From the IMG/VR virus record IMGVR_UViG_3300011115_000233, positions 462 through 64,461 of that record: DNA of 64,000 nucleotides, one strand, 5' to 3'. The stretch comes from a virus (taxonomy: Duplodnaviria > Caudoviricetes). Shown in pieces: positions 30,459 to 63,117 of this stretch. How positions within the stretch are numbered: the first letter of the stretch is position 1; each line of letters opens with the position of its first letter. The notes beneath the pieces were generated by a model. The model saw only the letters and a list, made by a program, of their open reading frames with translations. It was not told the origin of the DNA and did not search any database. The translations under genes and the position numbers were made by a program.

Positions 30459-30528
30459 CTGCGACGACGGCCCCGCGCCCGACCCGCACGAGTGAGAAGC
30501 ACTAACAAAGTTAGAAGGAGCAGATCAT

Positions 30529-45645: not shown

Positions 45646-47196
45646 GTGCAAATTATAGATAACAAAGCGCTGGTCGTAGAGACCAGCAACCCAAGCCTAA
45701 TTACCCAGAGCATCCAGAAAAGCACGATAATCGGGGAAAACCAAGTGGCCGTCAGGTGGGGGCTGCAAGAAGTGCAGACCCTTGCTAACCTAGGTTACAA
45801 GGACGCCCCGTCGCCTATCAAGCGTGACTATAAGTGGACCGGCAAGCATACGCCGTTCGCGCACCAAGAGACCACCTCATCCTTCCTTACAGCTAACAAG
45901 CGGGCCTTCTGCTTCAACGAGCAGGGTACGGGTAAGACGGCCTCAGTCATCTGGGCAGCGGACTATCTGATGAAGCTGGGTAAGATTAAGCGCGTCCTCG
46001 TGCTATGCCCTCTGTCGATCATGAAGTCCGCATGGCAGCGCGACCTGTTTACTTTCGCCATGCACCGCTCATGCAGTGTGGCTCATGGGGATGCCAAGGC
46101 CCGCAAGAAGATCATTGAGGCCGGTTCCGACTTCGTCATCCTAAACTTTGATGGTCTAGCTATCGTAGAGGATGTGATCCGTGACGGCGACTTTGACCTG
46201 ATCGTAGTGGATGAGGCTAACGCCTACAAGAACGCACAGACCAATCGCTGGAAGGTGCTGGCTCGTATGGTGAAGGACCTTGACCCTTACCTGTGGATGC
46301 TAACGGGTACACCCGCAGCACAAAGTCCTGTAGATGCCTTTGGTCTGGCAAAGCTGGTTAATCCCAACAACTGCCCAAGCTACTACGGCCTGTTCCGCGA
46401 TCAAGTCATGTTTAAGGTGACCCAGTTCAAATGGGCACCGAAGCCCAATTCAGATCGTGTCGTCCACCGTGTGTTGCAACCTGCTATCCGGTTTGAGAAG
46501 AAGGACTGCCTTGATCTACCGGAGGTCACGTTCACTGAGCGCGAGGCACCGCTTACAGCGCAGCAGAATAAGTACTACCTGCAACTTAAGAATGAGATGC
46601 TGATTGAGGCAGGCGGCGAAGAGATTAGTGCCGTCAATGCAGCAGTCAAGATCAATAAGCTGCTCCAGATCAGCGGAGGTGCGGTCTATTCAGATACTGG
46701 AGAAGTCATTGAGTTTGATGTCTCCAACCGCCTGAACGTGGTGCTGGAGGTCATTGAGGAGGCTGCAAACAAGGTGCTGGTCTTCGTGCCCTTCACGCAC
46801 ACCATCGAACTGTTGCGCGCCAAGATAGAGAAGGCTGGTGTCACCTGCGATGTCATCAATGGTAAGGTGCCACTGAATAAGCGGTCTGAGATCGTCGATA
46901 ACTTCCAGACTCGCAAAGACCCGCATGTGCTTATCATCCAGCCACAGGCTGCATCGCACGGGCTTACGCTTACGGCAGCAGATACAATCATCTGGTACGC
47001 CCCGGTAACGAGTGTTGAGACCTACCTACAAGCCAACGCCCGTATCAACCGTCCGGGCCAGAAAAATGCAATGACCATCGTGCACATCCGTGGCAGCGAA
47101 GTGGAGGACCGCCTGTTCTCCATGCTGCGGGGCAACATAAAAAACCACGAAAAGATTATTGATCTGTACCGGCAGATGATGATTGATGCTGCTTGA
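45646..47196 (+). CDS. SNF2-family (SF2) helicase
   Basis: EQGTGKT, VVDEA, LTGTP, HGLTLTAA, QANARINRPGQ. Confidence 0.9.
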   Translation: MQIIDNKALVVETSNPSLITQSIQKSTIIGENQVAVRWGLQEVQTLANLGYKDAPSPIKRDYKWTGKHTPFAHQETTSSFLTANKRAFCFNEQGTGKTASVIWAADYLMKLGKIKRVLVLCPLSIMKSAWQRDLFTFAMHRSCSVAHGDAKARKKIIEAGSDFVILNFDGLAIVEDVIRDGDFDLIVVDEANAYKNAQTNRWKVLARMVKDLDPYLWMLTGTPAAQSPVDAFGLAKLVNPNNCPSYYGLFRDQVMFKVTQFKWAPKPNSDRVVHRVLQPAIRFEKKDCLDLPEVTFTEREAPLTAQQNKYYLQLKNEMLIEAGGEEISAVNAAVKINKLLQISGGAVYSDTGEVIEFDVSNRLNVVLEVIEEAANKVLVFVPFTHTIELLRAKIEKAGVTCDVINGKVPLNKRSEIVDNFQTRKDPHVLIIQPQAASHGLTLTAADTIIWYAPVTSVETYLQANARINRPGQKNAMTIVHIRGSEVEDRLFSMLRGNIKNHEKIIDLYRQMMIDAA

Positions 47197-47220
47197 CATT
47201 GTCAAATAGCATTGTAAGAA
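47193..47220 (+). promoter_or_regulatory. Promoter whose -35 lies within the palindrome TTGACATTGTCAA
   Basis: TTGACA-N16-TAAGAA upstream of the SSB-like cluster. Confidence 0.5.
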
Positions 47221-47246
47221 TACCGGTGTCTAATAAGGAGCAACCT

Positions 47247-47651
47247 ATGATTACAGACAAATCCGTTGAGGATATGGTGGCTGCGTATCGCAAGATACGT
47301 GATGCTATATCGGAGAAAGAAGAGGCCCACAAAGCAGACGTATCTGGACTGCGTGAGCAACTCGATGTTGTCAGCGATGCACTGCTGGGGATTTGTAATT
47401 CCCTCCAAGCTGACAGCCTACGCACAGCGGCGGGTACAGTTAGCCGCCGTGTTACTACCCGTTATTGGACCACTGACTGGGAGAGGATGTATGAGTTCAT
47501 TCGTGAGAATGACGTACCGTTTCTCCTTGAGCAGCGCATCCATAACGGTAATATGAAGCAGTTTCTGGACGATAACCCAGAGATGCTTCCGGTCGGTCTT
47601 CAAGCTGATCGCAAGTTCGTCGTCCAAGTCCGTAAACCAACAGCAAAGTAA
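47247..47651 (+). CDS. Conserved replication-module protein
   Basis: Start MITDKS; RBS AAGGAGCAA; Y.KIRD, YWTTDW, LLEQRI. Confidence 0.65.
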   Translation: MITDKSVEDMVAAYRKIRDAISEKEEAHKADVSGLREQLDVVSDALLGICNSLQADSLRTAAGTVSRRVTTRYWTTDWERMYEFIRENDVPFLLEQRIHNGNMKQFLDDNPEMLPVGLQADRKFVVQVRKPTAK

Positions 47652-48851: not shown

Positions 48852-51704
48852 ATGGAGAACTTCGACCTATTATCCACTGTACAGCCACCTGATGGGTGGT
48901 TCGCAATCGTGGGTATCAAGGATGATATCGTAAAACAGACACTGGTTCAGACCCGCGAGGAAGCCGACCGTGTTGTAACCCAGTATCTAGCCCAAGAGCG
49001 TAACGTGTTCTTCGGGGTGGCTAAGTATAAGACCGATGCCGGTCGCACCAAGGATAACGTCCAGTCGCTTCGCGCCTTATGGCTCGACATTGATTGTGGT
49101 GAAGCCAAGGCTAAGCCGAATGAGAAGACCGGACGCCCAGATGGCTATGCCACGCAGCGTGATGGTGCCGTTGCACTGCTTGAGTTCCGCAACCTTGTCG
49201 GTCTACCCAAGCCTATCATCGTAAGTTCAGGACGCGGCATACACGCATACTGGGCGCTTGATCGGGACGTAACCCGTGAAGAGTGGGAGCCTGCATCCGA
49301 GCGGCTACGTGACCTGTGCTATACCCATAACTTCTACGTGGACCCAGCCGTATTTGATGCGGCGCGCATCCTGCGTGTGCCCGGCACTTTGAACTTTAAG
49401 GATGATCCTCCTAAGCCAGTAGAGGTAGCCCGACCCGCTGACCCAGTTAACTTCGAAGAGATCGTCAAGATTTTGGGTGTCAAACAGACGGCACCTAAGG
49501 AGAAGTGGGAGCCGACAGAACTTGGTAAGGCTATGATGGCCAGCACCCAGTTCAACTTCAGCAAGATCATGCAGCGCAGCGCCAAGGGCGATGGCTGTAA
49601 CCAGCTTCTTCATGCCTATACCAACCGAGCCACGCTGGACTATTACGACTGGTTCCACGCTATCTCGGTCGCCGCCATGTGCGAAGATGCGGACAAAGCG
49701 GTGCATATGATGTCCGATGGACACGCAGGATATGACCGTGACACAGTGGATGCCAAGGTAGCCACCATCAGGGGCGCAACTAGCTGCGCCAAGTTCGAGG
49801 GTAAAAACCCACCCTTGTGCCAAGGCTGTAAGTGGAAAGGGCAGATACTAGGCCCGAAATACCTAGGGAAAATTGTTAAGGAAGCGTCCTCCGAACTCGT
49901 TGATGTCATTCTAGATACGCCAGAAGGACCAAGGTCGGAGACGCTCACGATACCACAATACCCATTCCCTTATTTTCGCGGTGAGGGTGGGGGTATCTGG
50001 CGCAAAGGCGTAAAGGGGGAGGACGGTACTGAGGCAGACCCTACCCTCGTGTACCCTTATGATTTTTATGCTCTCAAACGTATGAAGGACGCGAAAAATG
50101 GTGAAATCATCGTCTTCCGTCGCCATCTACCACAGGATGGTGTGGAAGACTTCTTGGTGCCTCTCAATGAGGTAACGTCCAAAGACATGCTTCGTAAGGC
50201 TATCTCTACCTACAGCATCGTTGCTGCGGGTAAGACCTTCGACGTGCTGATGGACTACACCCTCAAATCAGTAATCAAAATGCAAGACAAAAGGAAAATG
50301 GAAATAATGCGTAACCAATTCGGATGGGCTGACAATCACAGCAAGTTTATCATCGGAGATCAGGAGATCAGCAAGGACGGGGTGCTCTATAGTCCTCCGT
50401 CGAACATCACGGCCAACATGGCAAAGCAGATGGGTCCTGTAGGCTCACTGGATAAGTGGAAGGAAGTCTGGGCACTCTATGGGCGTCCGGGCATGGAAGG
50501 CCACGCATTCGCCGCCTTGAGCGCATTTGGTGCGCCTCTGCTTCGTTTCCTGCGTCAGACAGGTGCAGCTATTAACCTTGTTAGCCCTGAGAGCGGCACG
50601 GGTAAGACCACCGCCCTGCGTATGGCCATGAGCGTATACGGACACCCCACGGAACTCATCGCCAAGAAGGCGGACACTCTGAACGCTAAGATGCAGTGGC
50701 TAGCCATCATGCGTAACCTGCCGTTCTGTGTGGACGAAATCACCAACATGCCAGCGGAAGAGTTCTCCGAACTGGTCTACGGTATGTCCCAAGGTAAGGG
50801 CAAAGAGCGCATGACAGCGGGGGGCAATGAACTCCGCATCAACGACACGACATGGCAGACAATCTCGCTCTGCTCGTCCAACGCTTCCTTCTACGAGAAG
50901 CTGACCACCTTGAAAGGCTCACCGGATGGGGAAATGATGCGTCTCATCGAGTACCGTATTCGCCCCACGGATGCGATCCCGACGGATGTTGGCAAGGCTA
51001 TGTTCGACCAGCAGCTTATGGAGAACTACGGCCACGCAGGTCCTATCTTCATCAAGTACGTACTGGAGAACTTGGAAGAGATTGAGGAAGCCTGCATGAC
51101 GCTCCAAGCCCGTCTGGACCGTGAGTTGCAGTTGACGCAGCGTGAGCGCTTCTGGTCTGCGGGTGTGGCGGCTAACCTCACTGCTGGCTTCGTGGCCAAG
51201 ATGCTCGGCCTTATCGACTGGGATATGAACCGCCTCTACCAGTGGGCTTGCAGCATGGTTGTCGGTCTGCGTGAGGAAATCGAAGCGCCAGCCACCAACA
51301 CGGCCCAGATCATCGGTGACTTCATCAACCGCTACATGCAGAACATCCTCGTCGTTGACGACGTAGTGGACCAGCGGAGCAACATGCAGACCATCCCGCG
51401 TATGGAGCCACGTGGGGAACTGGTGATCCGCTACGAGCCAGACACCAAGCTGATGTTCATCGCAGCCAAGAAGTTCAAGGAATACTGCGTTACCTACCAG
51501 ATCAACTACAAGGAAACGCTAAAGAAGCTAAAGAACGAAGGCGTCTTCCTGCGCTCTGACGTCAAGCGTATGACCAAGGGCATGAAGATCACTACCACTG
51601 GTGTGCAGGCGCTCATCTTCGATACGTCCATCGGTGGCTTCCTCGACATAGCCAACATCATCCCAGAAAAATCCGAGACAACTGATGTTGGTGGAGGGAG
51701 TTAG
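48852..51704 (+). CDS. Primase-helicase (AEP/RepB-like primase, DUF927, P-loop)
   Basis: WLDID, SSGRGIHAYW, RILRVPGTLN, C..C Zn site, SGTGKTT Walker A, VDEIT Walker B. Confidence 0.88.
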   Translation: MENFDLLSTVQPPDGWFAIVGIKDDIVKQTLVQTREEADRVVTQYLAQERNVFFGVAKYKTDAGRTKDNVQSLRALWLDIDCGEAKAKPNEKTGRPDGYATQRDGAVALLEFRNLVGLPKPIIVSSGRGIHAYWALDRDVTREEWEPASERLRDLCYTHNFYVDPAVFDAARILRVPGTLNFKDDPPKPVEVARPADPVNFEEIVKILGVKQTAPKEKWEPTELGKAMMASTQFNFSKIMQRSAKGDGCNQLLHAYTNRATLDYYDWFHAISVAAMCEDADKAVHMMSDGHAGYDRDTVDAKVATIRGATSCAKFEGKNPPLCQGCKWKGQILGPKYLGKIVKEASSELVDVILDTPEGPRSETLTIPQYPFPYFRGEGGGIWRKGVKGEDGTEADPTLVYPYDFYALKRMKDAKNGEIIVFRRHLPQDGVEDFLVPLNEVTSKDMLRKAISTYSIVAAGKTFDVLMDYTLKSVIKMQDKRKMEIMRNQFGWADNHSKFIIGDQEISKDGVLYSPPSNITANMAKQMGPVGSLDKWKEVWALYGRPGMEGHAFAALSAFGAPLLRFLRQTGAAINLVSPESGTGKTTALRMAMSVYGHPTELIAKKADTLNAKMQWLAIMRNLPFCVDEITNMPAEEFSELVYGMSQGKGKERMTAGGNELRINDTTWQTISLCSSNASFYEKLTTLKGSPDGEMMRLIEYRIRPTDAIPTDVGKAMFDQQLMENYGHAGPIFIKYVLENLEEIEEACMTLQARLDRELQLTQRERFWSAGVAANLTAGFVAKMLGLIDWDMNRLYQWACSMVVGLREEIEAPATNTAQIIGDFINRYMQNILVVDDVVDQRSNMQTIPRMEPRGELVIRYEPDTKLMFIAAKKFKEYCVTYQINYKETLKKLKNEGVFLRSDVKRMTKGMKITTTGVQALIFDTSIGGFLDIANIIPEKSETTDVGGGS

Positions 51705-51879
51705 TTATAACGTAAACTGGAAAACATTCAGGCGGGGGACGTCCATCTTCGTCCCCTGCTTGGACCCTAGACGCGCCAAGGCACAAGTCCTTGTGGTCAC
51801 CAACCGCCTCCGCATCAAGATATTGACAAAAGTTGTCATCGAGGATGGGATTAGGGGTTTACGTATTTGGTCAATATGA
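51685..51879 (+). CDS. Small hypothetical protein
   Basis: 64 aa; W..F..GTSIFVPC...GIRGLRIW; last gene of the replication operon. Confidence 0.65.
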   Translation: MLVEGVSYNVNWKTFRRGTSIFVPCLDPRRAKAQVLVVTNRLRIKILTKVVIEDGIRGLRIWSI

Positions 51880-51887
51880 TACTAATT

Positions 51888-51957
51888 GGAACGGAAGTTT
51901 GCTCCTTCCGGTTAGGCATCACTCGGCCCCCACCTCTCCGGTGGGGGCCTTTTTCTT
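51888..51957 (+). ncRNA. Putative anti-RBS small RNA
   Basis: Upstream TTTACG-N16-TACTAA with extended TG; hairpin CGGAAG-TTTGCTC-CTTCCG; terminator; seed complementary to the AAGGAGCAA RBS motif. Confidence 0.55.
51925..51957 (+). terminator. Rho-independent terminator
   Basis: GGCCCCCACC-TCTCC-GGTGGGGGCC followed by TTTTTCTTTT. Confidence 0.88.
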
Positions 51958-54900
51958 TTAGCGGTTGTCTTCTAACATCCCACGGACATACGGCGCGTAT
52001 TTATCCGGCACCCGCAGCCCCTGCATAGACCCAGCGCGGTCTTCTGCACGAGTCTTAAGGCTATCACCGACGTTCTCAAACTCAATCGTATGAATGTAAC
52101 CCGTCTGTTTGTGCCATTTATCAATATCACGCCAAATGGCATTGACCTTATCTTGGGCCTGCTCACCAGTGGTGCGGCCAAGGTCGATATCCCGATACGC
52201 CTTATCCAGCTTGTCGAGGTAGTCAGATCGTTCCTTTTCGATCTGTGTGACCACTTTCTTAGCAATGAGGTTGCTCTTCTGCATATCAGCCACGTCGGTA
52301 CGGCCAAAACCAGCAGCCTGACCGACAAGCAGACCCCATGTATACTCCTCCACTGGGGCGACAACATCCTGTGTGGTCGGCGTGACATAACCCTCGGACC
52401 CTAAACGCTTCGCTATAAGTACGTTGCGGAATGGAGCAGGGGTAATGTTCTCAGCAGCCCGCTGCCACTCACCATCGCGCATATATTGCCCACCGCGCAC
52501 TAAGTTTCGAACCACTGAACCGGTCGCACCGAGAGACATCGTGTACCACAACGACCGCAGAGCTTCCTCATCGGTATCCACTGGTGTGTCGTCGCGGAAG
52601 AACAGCCCATCAAGACCGACCGATGATCCGAAGTTCAACCCCGTAGCAGAAGAAATCGGACCCATCTTAACCGCACGAGTAAGTTCTTGTGCCTGTTCCT
52701 TGTCGAGACCCAAATCATTTGCGAGGTCGCTATCGGGACCAAAGTATTCTGGCAGGAACTTCTCACGGAACCATAGGTCGAGATTGCGTGAGTTCAGTGG
52801 GTTGTATTCGTCATCGTCGTCATCATCACCGAGGCCAGCCGCTGCAAGAAGCGACGTCATAAGCCCCATCATGAAGCTATAACCGGGCATACCTACAGCA
52901 CCAGCGAACATCCATGTCATACCGAGAGTGCCGAACAACTGCTTAGCTGCGACCTTGCGCTCTGGGTTTGGCATTAGCGATATAGTGCCCAGTGCAGTGC
53001 GGGTAAGCATCGACGTTATCTGGATCGGGAAAGACCAGAACTGAAGTGCAACACGACCAATCGGCCCCTTCATCGCACGTGGCTTACTGCTCTCAGCGTA
53101 GTCAAACATTACTTCAAGCGTCAGGTCAGCGGCGGTATCCGCAGCAATTGCCATAGCCGTTTTGGGGTCCATGCCACTCTTACGACGCTTAGCGTAGTCC
53201 AACTCAAATGCCGACATGTACGCAATTTCACGCGCAATGCGCTCCGCATGGTGGATACCGCCAGTGAAGAAGTCAAAGCCCCACTTAGCCATTCTCTGTG
53301 GGCGGGTCTTATACTTATCGCTAGGCCCTGACTTACGGTCCACCATCTCACCAGCATAGGTCGTGCCAAGGATGCCGCGCTCTTCAGCATCTTTCCAAGC
53401 GTACTGCAACGCGTCACGCATCTCGGGGTCTTTGTTCTCATTGATGTACTTACTGTCGCCCATGGTGGGCTGACCCCAGTTAGTGACGACATTCCCACCT
53501 TCATCGACCTTAGTGGTACCGAACTTATTACCAATGGTAGCCATATATCGAGCAGCCACAGCCGCTGTTTGAGGATACCCGTAACGTGCGCCTAAGGCGG
53601 GTAATGCAATGGTCGGAAGCTGGAAGAACTGCACCATGGCTGATTTGAGGGATGTCAGCAGGTAGAAGAACGTCGCCTTGTTTGCCAAGCGTGCCATCGT
53701 GTCCAGCTTACCAGTATTTGGGTTGAAAGTTTCAGCTACGCGGATAGCCATCTCATCAACATATGGCTGAAGCTGGTCACGATTCGGGTTCTTAGACATG
53801 AGGCCATACGCCTCACCAATGGTCCGACGGATATCTGAAGCATACTTTAAGTGCGTCAGACGGTTAATTGTGGACGTTTGGGTATCTACGTACGCACGTA
53901 GCGTATCCGCCGAATAGCCGGAAATATTTTGACGGTGTTGCCAATTCTCAAGGTTAGAACCCTTGGGAAGTGATGCGACATAAAGCTGAAAGACCATATC
54001 CTTGACCATCTTAGCATCAGCCATGCCGCCCTTATCAATCTCTATAAGTACGTTCTTCAGAACGGCAGAAGGCTCCGAACGCATGAAGTCAGCTTCCAAC
54101 CCTTCAATATCTTCGCCGTAGCTAAAGACACTATCATCTGCCCTAATCTCTTCAGCGCTGCGCTTGTCGCCACGCCGCTGTAGCTCCCTGATCCCGTCCT
54201 TAATAAGCTGTTGATAAGCAGCCCCATTTTCAACGCGCTTAACGTCACGGTTCTTACCCTTACCGATACGCACCCAATAGTTACCGGCACGGAATAGCGG
54301 GGCATACGGAGCATTCTTTTTAGCTGCGTCGTACCTTTTTTTGAGTTCATCGACAGCTTGCTTGATGCGATCCGCAGGCAAACCAGAGCTAGTAATGGTA
54401 GCCACCGTAGCGTTATACTCATTCTCGAACGAACGCTCGTAACCGCCCATCACCATTTCGTATAGGCGCTGGCCCTCACCGTTACCCATCTCAGGGGTAC
54501 CGAGTTTTTCGTACCTATCGTAAACACGCTTGATTGTAGCTTTACGGTTGTTAATCCTCTCGTCGGACGCACCTTCCTTGATTAAGTCAATAAGCTTAGG
54601 GTCAGCAGCCATTGCGGCTGCGAGTGATGGATGGCGTGGGTCCACCGAGTTTTCGGTAGAACTATTAATCAAATCAGCTAGTAGGTTGCCACCGTCCTTA
54701 AACTTAGCGTTAAACTTGGTGTAGCGCAGGTGGTTATAAGTTAGGTCCTTAAGCATCTTATTACGGAAGCCATCCATCCGGTTCAGAAGCTCGTTTATAT
54801 GGCTCAGCTTACGCGCAACAGGCGGCGACAGCTTGCTAACCATACGGATAAGGTCCCTACTGTAAGTAAGGTATCCCAGAATGAACCGACGCGATTTGTC

Positions 54901-57900
54901 CGTCATATTCTTCCAGTTAGAGTCTAGGGCATCAAGCTTACCCGCAATACCCCGAGCTTGGAAAAACATAGCTCCGCCCGTGATATTGATCTCAGCCGCC
55001 GTGTGGCTACTCGCCAGTTTCCGCTCCTCGCGCCTTGCGCTTGCCTCTTGACGCTTATTCTTCTTATTGGCCTTACCAGCCATGTACTTGTTAGGGACCG
55101 ATGGCATGTACTTTGACATGTCGGGTTGCGGGAATTTGATAGCTTCTGAACCCTCAGGTGCCCATGCAGCAAGCCTGCGGGACATGAAGTAGTCCATCCA
55201 CTCTTGGTCGATCCCAATGCGGCTTGCACGACTAGAAGCTTCATCGGGGTCCATGGCCATGAGTTCACGGTTGGTGTACAGACCGAGTTCTTTCAGGAAC
55301 GTCTTAGCCGCATCTGCGGGCACACGAATGCGGTCAAAGCCCGCCATGTAGCGCAGGCCCTTGATGACCGTGCTTTCGCGGTTTTCGTCTATAACGCGGT
55401 CATGAGCCATAGCCAGAATGGAGCGCACTTCGGCGTCGGAGTAGTCCAGCGTCATACCGATGCGGCGACCGAAGTCCTTGATGACAGCGGCGATCTTAGC
55501 CCAGACAGACGCATTTACACGGCCATCTTCCGACTGCTCTGCGAGCACTTCTTCCAACGCACGCAGGTTAGGGTTGCTATCGTTAGCGTAGACACCGGGA
55601 TTGTCCGCAAGCCACTGGTCAGCCTGCTCGCGCAGGGTCTTGTTACCCTTGTAAATCTGGGAGAGAACGTCGTTAAGGCGCGTGTTGAACAGCGCACGGA
55701 GGCCAAGGTGGCCCAGTGCCTCATGGTAGATAGCAGAGTTTGCATCTTCCAGCGTATCGATGTTGCTGGCGATGAAGTAGATTGTGCCATCTGGGGACAC
55801 AAAAGCAGGCACGCCTCCCATACCATCGCGCTCAAGCGCACGGCGCAGCTTCGCCGGAAGCTCGTCAATCGTACCAATAACCTTGGTACCGATCTTAGCG
55901 CGCCAGTTCTTCGTGATGCTCTTGATGTGATCTACAAGGGCATCGACGGCCATACCGGCAGTGGCCTTTCCACTGCGGCTGGCTTGGTAGACATTAGCGC
56001 CGATAGCTTCGTCTAGATCGTTCTCGATTTCCTCAAGAGTTCCGCGCTTAGTGCTAAGCTTAAACTTCAGTGCGTTATACGCAGCCTTAGTGATGGAGGG
56101 CTTAACCTGCTCCTCAGTATCTTCATCGAAATACCCCAGACCAGCACGGTCGATTTCAGCCTTTAGCTTGGCTTCCTTGTCTTCTGGTGCCTCTTCGAGT
56201 TCTCCCTCGGGTGCAGTTTCAACGGGTGCTGGCGCAGCTTCAGGCGCAGCTTCCGCTACCGCAGGCGCAGCTTCAGGCGCAGCTTCAGGCGCAGCTTCAG
56301 GCGCAGCTTCAGGCGCAGCTTCAGGCGCAGCTTCCGCTACCGCAGGTGCCCCTTGCAGGCTGCTTGCCCAGCCTGCTCCAGACTTATAGGCTTCAAGGAA
56401 TGCAGGACCTTGTTTCTCAAGGATCAACTCATCCGGCAGGAAGTCACGCCCCTGCATTACATCCCGTGCACCCTCAGTGAACATCCCATCATCGAGGCCA
56501 CGCTGAGCGGCTTCTTGCCGTGCAAATAGCATGGGGTTCGCCATGATCTCTTCACGTGTCGGCGCTGGTGCGGGCGTCGGTGCAGGTTCTACCGCGACAT
56601 CTTCGGGTGTAATGTCTGCTACAGTATTAGCAGGTAACGGAGGTAGCGGAGGTAGCTCTTCCGGCACAGGTGCAGGTGCAATGGTGGGTGCAGGTTCGGG
56701 AGCAATACCCAAGTCCTTGGCCGCAGCTTCTGCAACGGACGGCACCACACTAGCAGGGTCAGGCTGTACAGCAGCCTTGATAGCATCAGCCACAGGAGCT
56801 TTAGCTTGTTCCTCAACGGTTGGACCCGTAGGCGCTGCTGGCACGGGGGCGACGGTGGGAGCCGCCTTGGTTTCACCGCGCAGAGTTGCACCGCGCTGGA
56901 GAACATTGTCGATAGCGTCATAGGGATCAACTCCCTCAACTACCATCTTTGCAGCCTGCCTCTTCTGCACATCATTAAGTGCATCGACATTGTAATCTTC
57001 GAAGTCGAAGTAGTTGTCGGCAAACACTTTCTCGACGGTCGGGATAGCAGCCGTGACCTCTTTAGCGGTAGCCTTCTTCAGTGGACGCTGCTGAACTCCT
57101 TCGCCCCCAATATCTGGTCCAGCAGTAGTGTCACCAGCTCCCACTGGTCCAGTGTCAGTTTCCCCAACGCCTCCGGCCACATCAAGGGGTCCTGCCCCCA
57201 CACCACCAGAAACGCTTGGCTCAGCTCCTCCGGTGTTAGTTGTATCGTCTGTGCTAGGCTCATTGGTATTCCTCCGCGCTGCCATAAAGTCTTCGACATC
57301 TCGCCGTGCTTTTAGGTTAGCTTCGTTTTCGGATAAGCCTTCGGATTTATACCGTGCAACAGCCTTTTCATAAGCTTCCCCCACGCCACCGGAGGCAGCA
57401 TCGAACTCGGCATTACGGCGCTCTTCTTCGTCAATCCGCGCTTGGCGCTCGTCCGTAACTTGCCTACGCCCAGCCATGGCGTCAATACCGCCACCAAAGA
57501 TACCACCAAGCGTGCCTTCATAAGCAGCCTGTTCAAGCACACCCTTCCAAGTGTCGGTCGGGAAGCCAGCGCGCTCTTGAGCGAGGTTCTGTGCAAGCCG
57601 TTCCTGCCCAGCCTGAACACCTTCAGGGATACCTTCGACAATAGCACCTTCTGCTGTGCGGCGAAAAATACCCTTACCTGCTTCTTCAGCTACTTCCTGC
57701 CCTGCTGCCTTCGCAGCCACACGGGCCGCAGCTTGTTCAGCCAAATCTTTTGCAACCGTACCACCAAGCCACTTACCAAGAGCAGGACCGGCACCAGTTG
57801 CGTTAGCGATACCCCCGATGACACCGCCAAGGGCAATCATATCAAGGTTCTTGCCGCCGTAGGACTGTGCGTCATCTGCAATCTTTTGAGCCTGTGCATC

Positions 57901-58596
57901 GGAAAGACCAGCCTGTTTGGCACGTGCAAGCGTAGCGTCGTAGATGTCGCCCTTAATCATACCAGCGCCTGAGACGGCACCCACGGCTCCAAGTGCAGCG
58001 AGAGGAGCACCAGCGGCAGCGGCAGCGGCAAACGGAGCAGCAGTACCTAGCAAGTTAGACGCAACGTCAATAGGATGGCGCAAGAACGCCTTACCCGCAG
58101 CACCAGCGCTTTCGAAGAAGCCTTCGGCCTTAGCCATTTCCTCTGCGTCTTTGGCAGTATCTGCACGGGCTTCAGCGGAGCGCATTTCGTCTGCGGCTTT
58201 ACCAAAGTCAGCAATCCCACGGGACACGGCGTTGTTAGCACCGGCAACATCGCTGAAAGTCTTACCGATGGTAGCCACACCCGACATAAGACCAAGCGGA
58301 ACGTCCGCTATACCCGACAGCACACCCCCAACGACAGGGATTTCCTCAATCGGGCTAGGAGCAAACTTCTCCTCTTTTTTCTTCTGTTCAGGTGCGGGAG
58401 CAGGCGTAGATGCAGCCTCTACTGGCTTCCAGTTCTTCTGCTCGTTAGGGTCGCCACCCTTAAAGACATACCCACCCGAAACCGTACCGGGCTTAGGCAC
58501 AGGGACGGGAGCAATTTCCCAGTTCTTCTGGTCGTTTGGGTTACCACCTTTAAACCGGTATCCATCGACGACTGCGCCAACCTTAGGTACCGGCAT
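51958..58596 (-). CDS. Giant internal virion/ejection protein (large polyvalent-protein-like) with zincin-like domain
   Basis: 2212 aa; two N-terminal GYxFKGGxPNxQKNW repeats, Ala/Gly hydrophobic region, EAAP linker, HEALGH...LEEVLAE motif. Confidence 0.7.
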   Translation of the reverse strand: MPVPKVGAVVDGYRFKGGNPNDQKNWEIAPVPVPKPGTVSGGYVFKGGDPNEQKNWKPVEAASTPAPAPEQKKKEEKFAPSPIEEIPVVGGVLSGIADVPLGLMSGVATIGKTFSDVAGANNAVSRGIADFGKAADEMRSAEARADTAKDAEEMAKAEGFFESAGAAGKAFLRHPIDVASNLLGTAAPFAAAAAAGAPLAALGAVGAVSGAGMIKGDIYDATLARAKQAGLSDAQAQKIADDAQSYGGKNLDMIALGGVIGGIANATGAGPALGKWLGGTVAKDLAEQAAARVAAKAAGQEVAEEAGKGIFRRTAEGAIVEGIPEGVQAGQERLAQNLAQERAGFPTDTWKGVLEQAAYEGTLGGIFGGGIDAMAGRRQVTDERQARIDEEERRNAEFDAASGGVGEAYEKAVARYKSEGLSENEANLKARRDVEDFMAARRNTNEPSTDDTTNTGGAEPSVSGGVGAGPLDVAGGVGETDTGPVGAGDTTAGPDIGGEGVQQRPLKKATAKEVTAAIPTVEKVFADNYFDFEDYNVDALNDVQKRQAAKMVVEGVDPYDAIDNVLQRGATLRGETKAAPTVAPVPAAPTGPTVEEQAKAPVADAIKAAVQPDPASVVPSVAEAAAKDLGIAPEPAPTIAPAPVPEELPPLPPLPANTVADITPEDVAVEPAPTPAPAPTREEIMANPMLFARQEAAQRGLDDGMFTEGARDVMQGRDFLPDELILEKQGPAFLEAYKSGAGWASSLQGAPAVAEAAPEAAPEAAPEAAPEAAPEAAPAVAEAAPEAAPAPVETAPEGELEEAPEDKEAKLKAEIDRAGLGYFDEDTEEQVKPSITKAAYNALKFKLSTKRGTLEEIENDLDEAIGANVYQASRSGKATAGMAVDALVDHIKSITKNWRAKIGTKVIGTIDELPAKLRRALERDGMGGVPAFVSPDGTIYFIASNIDTLEDANSAIYHEALGHLGLRALFNTRLNDVLSQIYKGNKTLREQADQWLADNPGVYANDSNPNLRALEEVLAEQSEDGRVNASVWAKIAAVIKDFGRRIGMTLDYSDAEVRSILAMAHDRVIDENRESTVIKGLRYMAGFDRIRVPADAAKTFLKELGLYTNRELMAMDPDEASSRASRIGIDQEWMDYFMSRRLAAWAPEGSEAIKFPQPDMSKYMPSVPNKYMAGKANKKNKRQEASARREERKLASSHTAAEINITGGAMFFQARGIAGKLDALDSNWKNMTDKSRRFILGYLTYSRDLIRMVSKLSPPVARKLSHINELLNRMDGFRNKMLKDLTYNHLRYTKFNAKFKDGGNLLADLINSSTENSVDPRHPSLAAAMAADPKLIDLIKEGASDERINNRKATIKRVYDRYEKLGTPEMGNGEGQRLYEMVMGGYERSFENEYNATVATITSSGLPADRIKQAVDELKKRYDAAKKNAPYAPLFRAGNYWVRIGKGKNRDVKRVENGAAYQQLIKDGIRELQRRGDKRSAEEIRADDSVFSYGEDIEGLEADFMRSEPSAVLKNVLIEIDKGGMADAKMVKDMVFQLYVASLPKGSNLENWQHRQNISGYSADTLRAYVDTQTSTINRLTHLKYASDIRRTIGEAYGLMSKNPNRDQLQPYVDEMAIRVAETFNPNTGKLDTMARLANKATFFYLLTSLKSAMVQFFQLPTIALPALGARYGYPQTAAVAARYMATIGNKFGTTKVDEGGNVVTNWGQPTMGDSKYINENKDPEMRDALQYAWKDAEERGILGTTYAGEMVDRKSGPSDKYKTRPQRMAKWGFDFFTGGIHHAERIAREIAYMSAFELDYAKRRKSGMDPKTAMAIAADTAADLTLEVMFDYAESSKPRAMKGPIGRVALQFWSFPIQITSMLTRTALGTISLMPNPERKVAAKQLFGTLGMTWMFAGAVGMPGYSFMMGLMTSLLAAAGLGDDDDDDEYNPLNSRNLDLWFREKFLPEYFGPDSDLANDLGLDKEQAQELTRAVKMGPISSATGLNFGSSVGLDGLFFRDDTPVDTDEEALRSLWYTMSLGATGSVVRNLVRGGQYMRDGEWQRAAENITPAPFRNVLIAKRLGSEGYVTPTTQDVVAPVEEYTWGLLVGQAAGFGRTDVADMQKSNLIAKKVVTQIEKERSDYLDKLDKAYRDIDLGRTTGEQAQDKVNAIWRDIDKWHKQTGYIHTIEFENVGDSLKTRAEDRAGSMQGLRVPDKYAPYVRGMLEDNR
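56231..56346. repeat. 12-bp tandem repeat (GGCGCAGCTTCA) encoding an EAAP linker
   Basis: About 8 near-perfect units, with two PAVA-coding interruptions. Confidence 0.85.
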
Positions 58597-58599
58597 TTA

Positions 58600-60252
58600 C
58601 TACCCCCCGTAATTCTGTTCCCAAGGCTTACCGCCCTGTGCACCTGCACCTGCACCACCAGCACCGCTCTGCGCCATTTTCAGATATATCGCAAGGAGCT
58701 GATTTGCACGGTCTTGTAGCATCTTATCCTTAACGGCTTGATCCGGCTCTTCACGATACTTACCGTTCTGGACCAGTTCCGCTTGGGCAGACTCCCAAGC
58801 TTTTCCGACTGCTCCCTTATATATTGCATTTTCTTGTGCGCTGCTATTGGCCACGGCTGCGTCGTAGCCCTTATTTGCATTATAGACACTAGCGTCATAA
58901 GATAGCTTCTGACCACTGCGCTGCGTCTCGTCCTGCATCTTATTGGTAGCCCAAGAGAGGCCGCGTGTGAGGTCCTTATCCTTAAGGTCGAGTTCCGTCT
59001 TTCCAAAGTCGATCATGAACTTAACGCGTTCACGGGCTTCGGCGTTCTCGATACCTTCGATCTCTGCATACTGGGTAAGCAGCTTATCGGCACGTGCTTC
59101 ACGATCTTTCTTAGCCTGCCTAGCACCCGGAAGGGCGGCACTCGCAGCAGCACCAACAGCCTGCAAGAAGTTCGGTGAATTGGAGCCAGCGATGTTGAAC
59201 CCAATCTCAGCCAGAGTGGACCACTTGTCGTAGTCCTTTTCCTTCTTCTGGCTTTCTTCTGACATCTGCTCTTGGACACGTGCCTTCATCTTATCCCGAG
59301 CCTCGGTCTTGGGCTTAGGCATAAACTTGTCGTAGAACTCACCAGCATGTTCATATGCAAGGGGCATCTGGTCTGCAAGCTTACCACCGGGCACATCCAT
59401 AGGAGCTTGTGGGTTAGCTGCTTGTGCGGGATTAAGAAGCGTAGGACGACCGGACTTAGCTATCCCCGGACCCGGTTCAATATGCACATGGTCGCCTTCA
59501 TTAATGACGTCGTACTGCGAACCAAACTGGCCTTTAAGCTTACTATGCAGCGCAGCCATGCTCATGCCGGGAGGTGGCACAAAGTCACGGGCGTCATCCG
59601 TTAGGTGGTAGCTATTCGATGTTCCGCCTACTTCCGCATTTTTAGCAGCCGAGCGCTGGCGGCTTGTAACCCCAAGACCGGGAATAGCCTTAGTAGCTGT
59701 ATCTTCAAAGTAGCTACCAAAACCGCCGCCAGCAAAAGCAACGATACCGCCATTAGCATAGCTGCCGTTGTCAGGTTCATCGAACATACCTGACGGAATG
59801 GGGACATCAGAAAGCCCACCGCCCATAGCATATGGAGGGACCATACCACCTTCGGCCATACCCATCGGCGCTTCTTCAGCGGGCATCTCAGGCGCAGCCA
59901 TCTCAGGTGCGGGCATGTCGGGCATAGGAGCCATCTGCGCAGCTTCCGGCGTAGCGCCAAGACCAGCAGGAGCACCACCCATAGGAGGAGCACTCATGGG
60001 GGCAGGTGGAAGACCACCTTGCGGAGGTGCAGGCGGAGCGGGGGGTGCAAACGTCTTCTGGGCTACCGTCTGTTGAGGAGCCTGTTCTGCCTGCGCAGCC
60101 GACCGCATACGGTCAATAAACATACCCGCCAACGTGCCAGCCGTGGGGTCAATGATCCCCATCTGCATGGCTTCAGCGATCTTCTGCTTATTGCCCCCAT
60201 AGTCCTTGGCAATCTGCTCTGGGGACTGAAGGTTGTATGGCTTAGTTTCCAT
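58600..60252 (-). CDS. Ejection protein with peptidase M15-like peptidoglycan hydrolase domain
   Basis: VTSRQRS...N..VGG..NSYHLTDDARDF...EGDHVHIE. Confidence 0.7.
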   Translation of the reverse strand: METKPYNLQSPEQIAKDYGGNKQKIAEAMQMGIIDPTAGTLAGMFIDRMRSAAQAEQAPQQTVAQKTFAPPAPPAPPQGGLPPAPMSAPPMGGAPAGLGATPEAAQMAPMPDMPAPEMAAPEMPAEEAPMGMAEGGMVPPYAMGGGLSDVPIPSGMFDEPDNGSYANGGIVAFAGGGFGSYFEDTATKAIPGLGVTSRQRSAAKNAEVGGTSNSYHLTDDARDFVPPPGMSMAALHSKLKGQFGSQYDVINEGDHVHIEPGPGIAKSGRPTLLNPAQAANPQAPMDVPGGKLADQMPLAYEHAGEFYDKFMPKPKTEARDKMKARVQEQMSEESQKKEKDYDKWSTLAEIGFNIAGSNSPNFLQAVGAAASAALPGARQAKKDREARADKLLTQYAEIEGIENAEARERVKFMIDFGKTELDLKDKDLTRGLSWATNKMQDETQRSGQKLSYDASVYNANKGYDAAVANSSAQENAIYKGAVGKAWESAQAELVQNGKYREEPDQAVKDKMLQDRANQLLAIYLKMAQSGAGGAGAGAQGGKPWEQNYGG

Positions 60253-60255
60253 CTA

Positions 60256-61371
60256 CTATGGTCCCCCGAACATTTTAGCAGTGCTGTATATACCAAGCCC
60301 CGCACCCATAAGCTGCTGACCGATACCCGGCGCTGGCGCACTGGATGTTGCCGTACTGTTTGTAGCCTGCGGCACAGCACCTAGGATGTTCATATACTGC
60401 TGAAGCCGCTGGTATGGATCGTTAGCTGCCTTCTGGAAGTCTGCATAATCAAGATCGCGCTGCTGCTGGTTAAGTGCTTGTTCCTGCGCCGCCGTTGACT
60501 GCTGCATCCCAAGGCGCTGGGCATCCGCCTGCTGCTGGGCCGAACCAATGTTCGATAGTGTCTGAGCCATGTTACCCGCAGCTTCGTAACCCTTAAGGCC
60601 AAGCTCAGAACCGAACTGACGAGACTGCTCACTGAGGCGCTGCTGCTCAAGGTCAGTTTTCTGGTTGGCAAGGGCAGCTTCAAGACCCGACTTGGTCCCT
60701 AGCTCCTGCACACCAAGTGCTGCATTAAGATTAGCTTGGTTAACGTTAAAGCCCGCTGCGCGGTCACGTTCGAACTGCTGCTGCGCATTCTCGTACGCTT
60801 CTTGCTGGCCCTTAGCCTGAATGTCACCCATCAAGCGGCCAAGATCACGCTCACGACCAAGACCGGCAATAAGCTGACGGCTACCACCGTAGGTGCCCTG
60901 ACGTGCTGCACCCAAGTTCTGCATCAACTGGGTCTGCTGGGCATCTTCTTGGGCACGACGCTTTTGAACATCCAGAACATTCTGGAAGTAAGGCGACATA
61001 TACTGCTGGGCTTGGTCGTTACCGAACTTCTCAGCTTGGTTCATCTGGTACATGTTAAGGTTCGGGTTTTGAACCGTCTGCATGTTGAACTGCGTAGGGT
61101 CGTAGTTACCAGCATTGAGCGCCCCAACCCCAGCCTGATTTGCTAGGTTGGTAGCCGAACCAAACTGGCCCGGTGTCTGCATTCCAGCGACTTCGCCCTG
61201 AAGCTTCTTCTGCTGGTCTGTGAACCCTTCTAGACGATCACGGTCATAGATAGGCGTTGGGGCCGTGAGCAGCCCCTGCGCAGTCTGCATCGCAGTGTTA
61301 TAATATGGAAGCTGTGCCGCACCGATGTTCGATGTGGTCTGCGTTATCTGTTGTACTTGTGGCTTACCCAT
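60256..61371 (-). CDS. DNA ejection/pilot protein
   Basis: Gln/Ala-rich; YMSPY.QNV.D, G.YGGSRQ, C-terminal Gly-rich hydrophobic tail. Confidence 0.65.
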   Translation of the reverse strand: MGKPQVQQITQTTSNIGAAQLPYYNTAMQTAQGLLTAPTPIYDRDRLEGFTDQQKKLQGEVAGMQTPGQFGSATNLANQAGVGALNAGNYDPTQFNMQTVQNPNLNMYQMNQAEKFGNDQAQQYMSPYFQNVLDVQKRRAQEDAQQTQLMQNLGAARQGTYGGSRQLIAGLGRERDLGRLMGDIQAKGQQEAYENAQQQFERDRAAGFNVNQANLNAALGVQELGTKSGLEAALANQKTDLEQQRLSEQSRQFGSELGLKGYEAAGNMAQTLSNIGSAQQQADAQRLGMQQSTAAQEQALNQQQRDLDYADFQKAANDPYQRLQQYMNILGAVPQATNSTATSSAPAPGIGQQLMGAGLGIYSTAKMFGGP

Positions 61372-61413
61372 TACAAACCCCTACCATATGAGCGATAACG
61401 CGTCACTTACAAA

Positions 61414-62805
61414 TCACGCCAACCCGCGAACTAGCTTGGTGTCCTGCCCACGCCCTGCCTTCTTACGTGCCTTATGTGCTTTGTCCATAAGAGCGTAGAG
61501 CTTATCTGCACCACGCTGAGGGTTGCCTTTACCAATACGACGTACGGCATCTGCTGGCACAATCACTTCATCCCGAGCGACACGAGCAGGCTGATCCCTA
61601 CCAATACGAGCAGGTACGCTATCACTGACTCCATCGCCCTGACCTTGTACTGGGCGACCACCAATGCGACGGAGAGCTTCCATACCTGCATTGCTGCTAC
61701 CATTCCCGATTTCAGACACCGTGCGGGCGTCGAGCACAAAGGCTCCATCGGACAATTCAACTTCACCCCCATGGGCATAGCCAGTGTTGGGGTCAATGCC
61801 CCCCTGATACTCAACCGGCACATAGTTGTACATCGGCTGACCCTTCTTGGCCTTCGGGTTTAGCATAGGCTGCATGATCTGTGTGCCGCGCACGGTGTGT
61901 GACCCCGGCTGTACGACCTGACCCATAGTGTTATAGGTCTCGGGCATATCTACTTCGAAGAAACGACGCTGCTTCGACGAAAGAGGACCGTTAGGGTCCA
62001 TGATTTGCTTTCTATCCTGCGTGTAGTACGGACCCTGATAAGAGTTGTCGATTGCCTCAGACGACGTGCCGCCCGCACCGGGCCTAGACATTGCGCCACT
62101 CACACCCTGCATAAGCCCTGATGCAGCCAGCATGGGAGCGGCCTTGGAAATAAAGCCCGGAGTACCCGCAGGAAGGCCAGCACGAGCAGCCTGACCAAAG
62201 CGCTGAGCGAGACCAGCAAGACCAGTCTTAGCCGCAACAGTACTAGCAGCCGTGGCAGGTGCAACCGAAGCTGCAAGGCTAGGAGCCGCAGCACTAGCAA
62301 TGTTCATAGCCGCAGGCGCGGCATTAGCGGCAACACCCCCTGCAATATTTAGCGGAGCAGCGGCACCTAGACCCGCAGCAGTCGAAGTGGGAATTGCAGT
62401 AGCGCCAGCAGTCGAAAGCCCAGTAGCAGCAGTTTTGGCAAGAGCGCCCGTAGCCGTTGGGAACGCAGCGCCAGCGAGAGACGCGCCGCCATAAGCCTGA
62501 AGACCAGCCATCAGACCCTTCTTGAGGCTACCTGTGGCAGCGGTAGAGCCAGCAGCAACGAGACCCGCAGACAGAAGCGGTCCAACACCGGGGATAAAAT
62601 TAAGCCCAATACCAAGCAGTGTAGGTAGAAGCTTCTTAAGGAACCCGGCTTCTGGGAGACCCGTGTGCGGGTTAATAGTCAAGGAGCCACCATGCGCCAG
62701 AGCTAGACCCTGAAGGCTGTTCACCTCATTGGGTGTCATGTGCACGAGCATGGTATCTTCGCCGCGTCCCTGCGACTGGATATGCTGCGCCATCTGATGG
62801 TTCAT
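61414..62805 (-). CDS. Internal virion protein
   Basis: GRGEDTMLVHM...TINPHTGLPEA N-domain; GDGVSDSVPA C-domain. Confidence 0.65.
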   Translation of the reverse strand: MNHQMAQHIQSQGRGEDTMLVHMTPNEVNSLQGLALAHGGSLTINPHTGLPEAGFLKKLLPTLLGIGLNFIPGVGPLLSAGLVAAGSTAATGSLKKGLMAGLQAYGGASLAGAAFPTATGALAKTAATGLSTAGATAIPTSTAAGLGAAAPLNIAGGVAANAAPAAMNIASAAAPSLAASVAPATAASTVAAKTGLAGLAQRFGQAARAGLPAGTPGFISKAAPMLAASGLMQGVSGAMSRPGAGGTSSEAIDNSYQGPYYTQDRKQIMDPNGPLSSKQRRFFEVDMPETYNTMGQVVQPGSHTVRGTQIMQPMLNPKAKKGQPMYNYVPVEYQGGIDPNTGYAHGGEVELSDGAFVLDARTVSEIGNGSSNAGMEALRRIGGRPVQGQGDGVSDSVPARIGRDQPARVARDEVIVPADAVRRIGKGNPQRGADKLYALMDKAHKARKKAGRGQDTKLVRGLA

Positions 62806-62814
62806 CGTTAATTC

Positions 62815-63117
62815 CTATACCGAAGTCACGGTCTGCCAAGCAGAGCCACTATATACACAAAGTTTACCGAGGTCAGTATCAAAAACTACCCATCCCGCGC
62901 TAGGAGTAAGCGCGTTCTTTTCTACCGTGGTCACGTTCTTTGTGGCGGCAATACCATTGAACGTATCTGCTGTATATTTTTGAGCGTTGTTAGGTGTACG
63001 CGAGTCAAGCTGGGAGAAGTAGTTCTCTATAACGCGCAGTACCTGCCGCATATACTGTGCATCCCACTTGGGTGGTGGGTTAGGCAACGGCGGAAACCGG
63101 AACTTGTCCATAGCCAT
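62815..63117 (-). CDS. Small tail-associated protein
   Basis: Likely start MAMDKF at 63117, coupled to the upstream stop. Confidence 0.6.
   Translation of the reverse strand: MAMDKFRFPPLPNPPPKWDAQYMRQVLRVIENYFSQLDSRTPNNAQKYTADTFNGIAATKNVTTVEKNALTPSAGWVVFDTDLGKLCVYSGSAWQTVTSV

Follow-up and report, generated by a model that had tools for sequence, protein, structure and literature searches.

The window analysed here is a stretch of 64,000 nucleotides (nt) that makes up nearly all of a 64,461-base uncultured virus record (IMG/VR IMGVR_UViG_3300011115_000233; Caudoviricetes). In it, a 78-bp gap separates the stop codon of a 64-amino-acid (aa) open reading frame (ORF) at 51877-79, the last gene of a predicted operon that also encodes the primase, from the stop codon of a convergent 2212-aa ORF on the minus strand at 51958-60. 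This gap holds a real, conserved and unannotated RNA element, a hairpin followed by an intrinsic terminator. The loop and 3' arm of the hairpin are complementary to the ribosome-binding site (RBS) of the first gene of the same predicted operon, which encodes a 134-aa protein, and the loop and this RBS change together among relatives. Pairing between the two is well supported by sequence comparison, and hairpin and RBS very probably pair to hold back translation. We consider it rather likely that the gap encodes a small regulatory RNA of ~66 nt that pairs with the RBS of the 134-aa gene, and we infer three things about it: its existence as a discrete RNA, the pairing in vivo, and repression as the outcome.

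A hairpin with a constant loop motif and a variable stem

The hairpin follows the stop codon of the final operon gene and precedes the sole terminator, which the upstream mRNA thus shares (Table 1). In the terminator scan this terminator showed a 10-bp stem with 9 G-C pairs and a 5-nt loop, as is characteristic of intrinsic (Rho-independent) terminators; the plus-strand T-run is also present in the terminators of relatives, where the layout is as in the window. The 81-nt gap folded at -38.9 kcal/mol (z -5.9; equalled by 0 of 200 shuffles), with the hairpin stem lengthened to 51882-51915, and the fold of the 69-nt segment 51892-51960 (-32 kcal/mol, z -4.2) consisted of the hairpin, a linker and the terminator. 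An initial annotation of the window, made from the letters alone, had described the 78-bp gap, the hairpin and the plus-strand terminator, and all three read in the sequence as it stated. A covariance model built from 43 hairpins (R1) identified the hairpin as the single copy in the window, at 28.6 bits (E 1.7e-7), with a runner-up at 11.6 bits. An 11-base copy of the seed, AGTTTGCTCCT, is present at 58357-58367 on the minus strand, towards the 5' end of the late 2212-aa gene and on its coding strand (R1 11.6 bits, E 0.15), and is probably there by chance.

Primase searches of public viral contigs recovered more than 575 relatives, a large family of uncultured phages with genomes of ~60-65 kb, and 19 + 80 + 80 of their loci were inspected; these loci are partial and cover just part of the early region. 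Among cultured phages, the closest protein relative of the primase was that of Pseudomonas phage Rollin, at 28% identity, and megablast with 50500-53500 gave no match. The hairpin, followed by the terminator, is kept after the primase and 64-aa genes down to 45% primase identity, and R1 matched at the expected place in 46/78 and 21/80 loci. The motif U[U/C/A]GCUCCUU is kept while the stems vary by double substitutions, GGAAG/CTTCC being replaced by GAGAG/CTCTC, GAAAG/CTTTC, GCAAG/CTTGC, GTAAG/CTTAC or GGATG/CATCC. Three of the five core pairs changed on both sides, with a covariation score of 0.233 against 0.077 for shuffled alignments (0/500). A discount applies here: each row of the stem alignment (A4) had been chosen in advance for its perfect 5-bp stem and the core pairing is 100% by construction, so that the evidence lies in the variety of pair types and not in the complete pairing. 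In three loci (L157, L177 and L018) the intact motif lies in an enlarged loop above an unrelated stem, which points to selection for single-stranded display of the sequence.

A YUNR U-turn at the 5' side of the loop is a motif of antisense-RNA recognition loops. The initial annotation had pointed to such a motif in the window; it is found in the loops with UUUG, UUAG and UUCG and is lacking in the loops UUGCUC, CUGCUC and AUAGCUC, so it is a feature of part of the family and not universal.

Covariation of the loop with the RBS of the 134-aa gene

Orthologous gene starts were compared across 13 long early regions, in which the RBS of the 134-aa ORF (starting at 47247) tracks the hairpin loop. 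The RBS GGAGCAA goes with the loop TTGCTCC in the window, c814, G010 and G013; GGAGCGA goes with TCGCTCC in three lineages (L053 and its kin; L015/L017/L193; L254/L262); and GGAGCTA goes with TAGCTCC in G011 and G012. Further combinations are GGAACTAA (RNA GGAACUAA) with the loop TTAGTTCC (RNA UUAGUUCC) in L235 and L238, and TGGAGCTAAC (RNA UGGAGCUAAC) with the loop GTTAGCTCCA (RNA GUUAGCUCCA) in L251, L253 and L261; GGAACUA sites accompany UAGUUCC loops. G015 has no hairpin, and the RBS of its 134-aa gene is without GGAGC.

Covariation of loop and RBS in relatives had been set beforehand as a check on the initial annotation, and for the RBS of the 134-aa gene it was borne out. Among 124 distinct rows, 68 had both elements, 44 had neither and 12 had one only; the variable base was complementary in 65 of the 68 rows with both (T/A 35, A/T 25, C/G 5). 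At least 5 changes in the loop and 6 in the RBS are required on the tree. Independent pairs for A/U gave 3 in the predicted direction, 0 in the opposite direction and 1 tie, and those for C/G gave 3 and 0, in tests that are underpowered with 2-4 pairs per trait. The longest complement between the RBS (-22 to -1) and the 3' region was 8.47 nt for own pairs and 6.85 nt for permuted pairs (0/10,000); with one representative per cluster (22) the values were 8.30 and 7.22 (median p <0.001, worst p 0.012). The 134-aa gene was the best or tied-best seed match among ~20 other starts in 52/65 loci, and the conserved predicted target is a single gene, this first cistron of the primase operon.

Other arrangements were seen in some relatives. 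A hairpin CGGAAG-TGCAAA-CTTCCG occurs ~12 nt upstream of the primase start codon in L123, L125 (9967-9994) and L159 (6206-6233), and its opposite strand resembles the 3' hairpin (R1 19.2 bits). The L195-L250 group, without the GCTCC hairpin, has pyrimidine-rich stretches of the UCUCCUUG type between the small ORF and the terminator, and 134-aa gene RBSs such as TTAGGAGAATCAG; within this group, L211 has an 11-nt complement, TCTCCTTCAGT, and the loop TTATCTGC of L241 mirrors the spacer GCAGATAA, not the Shine-Dalgarno (SD) sequence. L273-L276 are phage-sized contigs of 61-64 kb in metagenome-assembled genomes labelled Caulobacteraceae, Actinomycetota, Sericytochromatia and a betaproteobacterium. 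These contigs look mis-binned and give no host; the taxa are unrelated to each other, so that a host is not inferable from the binning.

Complementary sites in the window

The plus-strand genes of the window (28375-51879) include those for a DNA polymerase, a helicase and a 950-aa primase-helicase and end with the 64-aa ORF, while the minus-strand genes (1-28250 and 51958-64000) include structural genes and that for the 2212-aa DarB-like protein. With up to 2 mismatches, GAAGGAGCAAAC matched the window 21 times against 5.2 expected (0/100 shuffles), and GGAGCAA matched 22 times against 9.4 expected. On the plus strand, exact TTGCTCCTT occurs once, within the hairpin, and its complement AAGGAGCAA occurs 9 times, each directly upstream of a start codon. 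Complementarity over at least 9 contiguous nt was found at 12/27 plus-strand (early/middle) starts and 0/43 minus-strand (late) starts, and over at least 7 nt at 15/27 and 1/43, in start lists that we compiled ourselves, the plus-strand list partly from a GGAG-anchored scan and the minus-strand list from the first start of the longest ORFs. The twelve sites given in the initial annotation were confirmed at its lengths (11, 11, 10 and 10 nt, and eight of 9 nt). Extensions after GGAG in late genes are mixed, for example GGAGG, GGAGCT and GGAGT.

Table 1. Positions of the hairpin, the terminator, promoter-like signals and complementary ribosome-binding sites in the window.
Feature	Position	Strand	Details
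Stem-loop	51892-51910	+	5' arm CGGAAG 51892-97; loop TTTGCTC 51898-904; 3' arm CTTCCG 51905-10
Seed GUUUGCUCCUUC	51897-51908	+	loop plus 3' arm
Linker	51911-51924	+	14 nt, unpaired between hairpin and terminator in the fold of 51892-51960
Intrinsic terminator	51925-51959	+	stem GGCCCCCACC-TCTCC-GGTGGGGGCC 51925-49, then T-run TTTTTCTTTT
RBS AAGGAGCAA, 134-aa gene (47247-47651)	47235-47243	+	conserved target; complementary to 51899-51907, 9 nt
Sigma-70-type promoter, primase operon	47193-47221	+	TTGACA, 17 nt, AAGAAT, with TG; 10/12 matches
64-aa ORF	51685-51879	+	last gene before the element; overlaps primase stop by 20 bases
-35-like hexamer TTTACG	51858-51863	+	in Gly-Leu-Arg codons of the 64-aa ORF
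Extended -10-like TG-n-TACTAA	51877-51885	+	overlaps the stop codon; alternative hexamer TATGAT 51874-79
RBS AAGGAGCAG	30515-30523	+	9-nt match GAAGGAGCA; start 30529
RBS AAGGAGCAA	30990-30998	+	11-nt match; start 31002
RBS AAGGAGCAA	31087-31095	+	11-nt match; start 31100
RBS AAGGAGCAA	32313-32321	+	10-nt match; start 32326
RBS CAGGAGCAA	34703-34711	+	9-nt match AGGAGCAAA; start 34719
RBS AAGGAGCAA	35932-35940	+	start 35944
RBS AAGGAGCAA	36238-36246	+	10-nt match; start 36252; ortholog is GGAGCGA in UCG-loop genomes
RBS AAGGAGCAA	37102-37110	+	start 37116
RBS AAGGAGCAA	38290-38298	+	start 38303, Hjc-like nuclease
RBS CAGGAGCAA	42394-42402	+	9-nt match AGGAGCAAA; start 42407
RBS AAGGAGCAA	44158-44166	+	start 44171

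The predicted operon of the 134-aa gene

The sigma-70-type promoter upstream of the 134-aa gene is conserved: TTGAC[AT] is present in 109/127 unique relatives, 90 of which have a -10 at a spacer of 16-17 nt, and the -10 ends mostly 25-31 nt before the ATG. The terminator scan gave no plus-strand terminator-like site between 47247 and 51925. Given this conserved promoter and the lack of any terminator-like site before 51925, the promoter, the 134-aa gene, a 299-aa gene, the primase gene, the 64-aa gene, the hairpin and the terminator are predicted to form a single unit that ends at the hairpin. Contact within this mRNA would join two sites 4.65 kb apart, which share 9 contiguous complementary nt in the window. 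The leader around the 134-aa RBS is without notable structure (z -1.3); since the target RBS lies near the 5' end in an unstructured leader, pairing there should repress and not activate.

The -35 of the promoter is also half of a palindrome at 47193-47205, TTGACAnTGTCAA, which is kept in 74/127 unique relatives, yields a promoter-like match on the minus strand as well and is likely an operator for a dimeric repressor. The predicted fold of the 134-aa protein, a long N-terminal helix and a small beta-sheet, had a predicted local distance difference test (pLDDT) score of 52 from the single sequence and 91 with an alignment. A comparison with the PDB gave no structure match at E <=0.001 and no sequence match. 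Weak fold look-alikes were viral (Siphovirus Gp157-like, 'host-nuclease inhibitor'; E ~1e-4), and PHROGs labels the family 'minor head protein'; we rely on neither of these names.

Promoter-like signals upstream of the hairpin

The 64-aa ORF was found in 159 loci by tblastn. The protein had no family in Pfam (E <=0.01) or PHROGs, and its Atlas look-alikes were viral hypothetical proteins only. Over the end of this ORF the initial annotation had placed a possible promoter, with TTTACG at 51858 and TGnTACTAA at 51877-85; its register, with a 16-nt spacer before TACTAA at 51880, is shared with the TATACT of L053, L179 and L181. In 99/140 unique 3' regions, compared with 0-16/140 in controls, a TANNNT box that matched at 4 or more of its 6 positions started between -3 and +8 nt from the stop codon; 69 of these 99 boxes stand at +2, and the commonest are TATACT (23), TACACT (22) and TAGACT (12). 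The -35-like TTTACG or TTGCGN lies 17 nt upstream of the -10-like box in 53/72 sequences. The Leu codon at the -35 site was TTG (59) or TTA (55) in 114/126 unique sequences, against a background TTR share of 12.5% among the 440 Leu codons of 16 plus-strand window genes, a bias that points to constraint at the DNA level.

The TACTAA of the window is without the final T, and for this reason the consensus promoter scan did not list the window promoter. The proposed promoter is thus present in sequence and its register is conserved across the family, but its -10 in the window is non-canonical and absent from the scan list. Small RNAs that derive from 3' untranslated regions (3' UTRs) and have their own internal promoter are known, of the DapZ/MicL kind. 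The conserved promoter-like signals across the family make an independent RNA of ~66 nt plausible; in the window and its nearest kin the 3' UTR route may matter more than an own promoter. In the clade with UAG loops (L134, L138-L149), the -10-like box lies ~31 nt before the hairpin, and the interval contains a second small hairpin (CGAGC...GCTCG) and an anti-SD-like stretch, UUUCUCCUC; with this extra interval the predicted RNA is longer and has two pyrimidine motifs.

Extension of the tag to other genes

We counted the three bases after GGAG, referred to here as the tag, at GGAG-type starts by loop type (U in the RNA standing for T in the loop), leaving out the 134-aa gene. The seven TTG-loop genomes had 182 such starts (CAA 59, CGA 3, CTA 0), the two TCG-loop genomes 65 (CAA 4, CGA 5, CTA 0) and the two TAG-loop genomes 45 (CAA 3, CGA 0, CTA 3). 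The CAA tag was thus present at 59/182 starts in UUG-loop genomes versus 7/110 in UCG- and UAG-loop genomes. Fisher tests, uncorrected for kinship, gave p values of 5e-8 for CAA, 0.03 for CGA and 0.007 for CTA. In 33/65 loci, which are partial, no further start had at least 9 complementary nt, and the 299-aa neighbour of the 134-aa gene retains GGAGCAA in UCG- and UAG-loop genomes too. The putative tag on other genes tracks loop type, yet it is abundant only in some clades. Thus, of the whole-regulon temporal switch put forward in the initial annotation, the 12/27 against 0/43 division of starts and the agreement of tag with loop stand, but the conserved target is one gene and the tagging of a dozen genes is specific to certain clades; a temporal shut-off of the early/middle regulon is a hypothesis drawn from sequence.

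A proposed mechanism and its alternatives

The RNA would most likely be transcribed from its own promoter, with the -35 at 51858, the -10 around 51877-85 and the first base near 51892, and end at the intrinsic terminator, and the same sequence would also form the 3' UTR of each primase-operon mRNA begun at the 47193 promoter. The 7-nt loop and the 3' arm, together GUUUGCUCCUUC, would pair with the SD sequence and 3-5 bases beyond it. The main target would be the 134-aa gene, the first cistron; only ~10 nt separate its AAGGAGCAA (47235) from the predicted 5' end of the mRNA. Nucleation may take place in the open loop on GCAA(A), after which the 3' arm would open onto AAGGAG. Occlusion of the RBS would block 30S binding, leading to less translation and probably to less mRNA stability, and the outcome would be negative feedback or a delay on the very operon that produces the RNA. 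In the clades of the window phage, the GGAGCAA tag on 11 further early/middle genes might allow repression in trans.

Several observations weigh against this mechanism. The stem sequesters CUCCUU, half of the seed, and extends to 51882-51915 in the context of a long mRNA, and the TACTAA of the window, already short of its final T, degenerates further in the closest relatives. These closest relatives (the L002 group) also have the loop CUGCUC, one base shorter, together with GGAGCAA sites. L035 and L170 have a U loop and a U-type RBS, and L177 is without a matching RBS. Phylogeny leaves only ~6-7 independent covariation events, and no single sign test reaches significance (p 0.25). Duplex energies part early from late starts weakly (-16.8 versus -14.3 kcal/mol, p 0.019), and the matching tag is carried by just 5/65 other starts in UCG-loop genomes and 3/45 in UAG-loop genomes. 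The strand test was ambiguous, as the minus strand folded better in 55/82 windows and G-U counts were alike.

One competing explanation is action in cis only, of the icaR type: the 3' UTR would fold back to the first RBS of its own mRNA, 4.65 kb upstream, with no separate RNA, and the GGAGCAA tag on other genes would be a translational preference unlinked to the hairpin. The conserved target is indeed the 5'-proximal RBS of the same predicted unit, which begins at the 47193 promoter and has no terminator-like site ahead of 51925; in 52/65 loci no other start matches the seed better than that of the 134-aa gene; a separate RNA would have only a poor -10 in the window; and long-range pairing between an anti-SD sequence and an RBS within one mRNA has been shown in bacteria, going by the accessible sections of the reports (PMC3868564, PMC12697547). 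A pure 3' UTR element, however, needs none of the conserved -35 and -10 with their 17-nt spacer or the codon bias upstream of the hairpin, and the RBS tags of other genes track loop type as well; we regard action in cis alone as unlikely. At the other extreme lies the full proposal of the initial annotation, a timed global shut-off of the early/middle regulon through a private RBS extension that spares late and host mRNAs. The complementarity over at least 9 nt at 12/27 early/middle starts and at 0/43 late starts, the CAA tag at 59/182 starts in UUG-loop genomes with the 134-aa gene excluded, and the other extensions found in late genes all agree with it. We consider it less likely than not, as the tag is abundant only in some clades, 33/65 partial loci are without another start with at least 9 nt, the 299-aa neighbour stays GGAGCAA whatever the loop (UCG or UAG), and the energies discriminate weakly between early and late starts.

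The hairpin might instead be an ordinary 3' structure that stabilises the mRNA 3' end or aids termination, its likeness to an anti-RBS sequence being due to chance and shared ancestry. A strong terminator does lie directly downstream, pyrimidine-rich stretches are frequent in these 3' regions, and the independent covariation events are few. But the loop is conserved while the stems change, and the motif also occurs in loops with unrelated stems; the excess of own over cross complementarity survives the choice of one representative per cluster; 6/6 informative independent pairs move to the complementary base; and hairpin and tag are jointly absent in 44 rows. The covariation is not accounted for if the hairpin is purely structural, and we think it highly unlikely that this is all the element is. 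Activity of the minus strand is more improbable still. A late-operon read-through RNA would there carry an RBS look-alike, GGAAGGAGCAAAC, in the hairpin and serve as a decoy for a factor, or the hairpin would mark a site in DNA. The terminator is without a U-run on that strand, so late transcripts may read through, and the strand folds at least as well. Yet in the window the look-alike is not followed by a start codon, a comparison with L002 shows no conserved ORF, all terminator T-runs and conserved promoter-like signals are on the plus strand, and a third partner would be required to explain the covariation. A small minus-strand ORF after the RBS look-alike was considered and rejected, since start codons are lacking at any workable spacing and a stop in the window interrupts the frame that is open in L002. 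Set beside these alternatives, we favour a small RNA that pairs with the RBS of the 134-aa gene.

Relation to known systems

Rfam 15 gave no match at gathering score in the window or in the loci of 20 relatives (110,619 bases); the best sub-threshold models were RF02278 (22 bits against a gathering score of 50) and RF02344 ar14 (14.4 against 58.8). The listed papers on phage small RNAs, going by titles and abstract openings, do not describe the element. The c4 antisense RNA of phages P1 and P7 is an RNA from the same operon that occludes an RBS, and in phage T4 the RegB nuclease and the RegA repressor are proteins that shut off early mRNAs via their RBS regions. The element resembles these systems as a phage-encoded shut-off of the phage's own early genes at the RBS, and c4 in being encoded in the operon that it controls. 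It differs in that the window has no match to the Rfam C4 model (RF01695), in that RegA and RegB are proteins, and in that it is 3'-terminal and not in a leader.

Betaproteobacterial toxic small RNAs act through RBS binding. Their Rfam family, RF02278, is similar to the element in its length of ~60 nt, its CUCC-rich stretches and its intrinsic terminator, as far as the available part of its description goes (PMC4603805). Membership in RF02278 was rejected, since in the alignment 4 pairs of the first helix are broken, most of the match comes from the terminator and the score reaches 22 of the 50 bits.

In the icaR mRNA of Staphylococcus aureus, the available sections of the report describe a pyrimidine-rich anti-SD motif of the 3' UTR that pairs with the mRNA's own 5' SD region and hinders initiation (PMC3868564); RNase III cleavage of the duplex also belongs to this type of pairing. 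As in icaR, a 3' UTR motif of the phage is complementary to the SD region of the same predicted mRNA. Unlike in icaR, the two phage sites are 4.65 kb apart on a four-gene operon, the motif is in a hairpin loop and reads 3-5 bases past the SD, the conserved promoter suggests a separate RNA, and up to 11 other phage genes share the site. Distant aSD-like 8-mers in mRNAs of Bacillus subtilis pair with the own RBS, promote decay and inhibit initiation; as summarised in the accessible portion of that preprint, such sequences are accidental and selected against, whereas the phage one is conserved, structured and covarying (PMC12697547).

The cuckoo or CcsR1-4 RNAs of Alphaproteobacteria have hairpins of variable stem with a constant pyrimidine-rich loop motif, and the CcsR RNAs derive from the 3' UTR of ccaF1, the gene of a 71-aa protein, according to the available sections of two reports (PMC4615179, PMC8034643). 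The phage element is like them in its variable stem, its constant loop motif and its position after a small gene, here of 64 aa. By the same partial accounts, cuckoo RNAs follow a gene for a small DUF1127 protein and carry CCUCCUCCC in each of 2-4 neighbouring hairpins, while the phage has one hairpin with the loop UUUGCUC and the motif U[U/C/A]GCUCCUU. The phage element is encoded by a phage and would be aimed at the phage's own genes, and the 64-aa protein has neither DUF1127 nor any other Pfam match and no sequence link to ccaF1; a CcaF1-like role for it is suggested by analogy only.

The timing of phage genes is usually ascribed to promoters, sigma factors and a few RNA-binding proteins. 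The present element points to a further layer of timing, in which an RNA would read the phage's own RBSs via a short private extension, in a large family that has no Rfam model. Three natural compensatory variants exist (A:U, G:C and U:A). If the proposal is true, it would allow selected genes to be repressed by simple and portable means, through the orthogonal pairing of RBS tag and mirror RNA, and would explain why an odd RBS is common to a block of genes. A bolder and more doubtful extension is a translational address code private to the phage, in which the bases after the SD sequence would tag early/middle genes and one RNA from the end of the replication operon would read the tag and act as a timer. 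Were this so, the RNA would appear only after 4.7 kb had been transcribed, which would amount to a built-in timer; its own operon would be throttled first and, in phages with a widely spread tag, one early gene in three would be turned off at the same time, while late and host messages would be spared.

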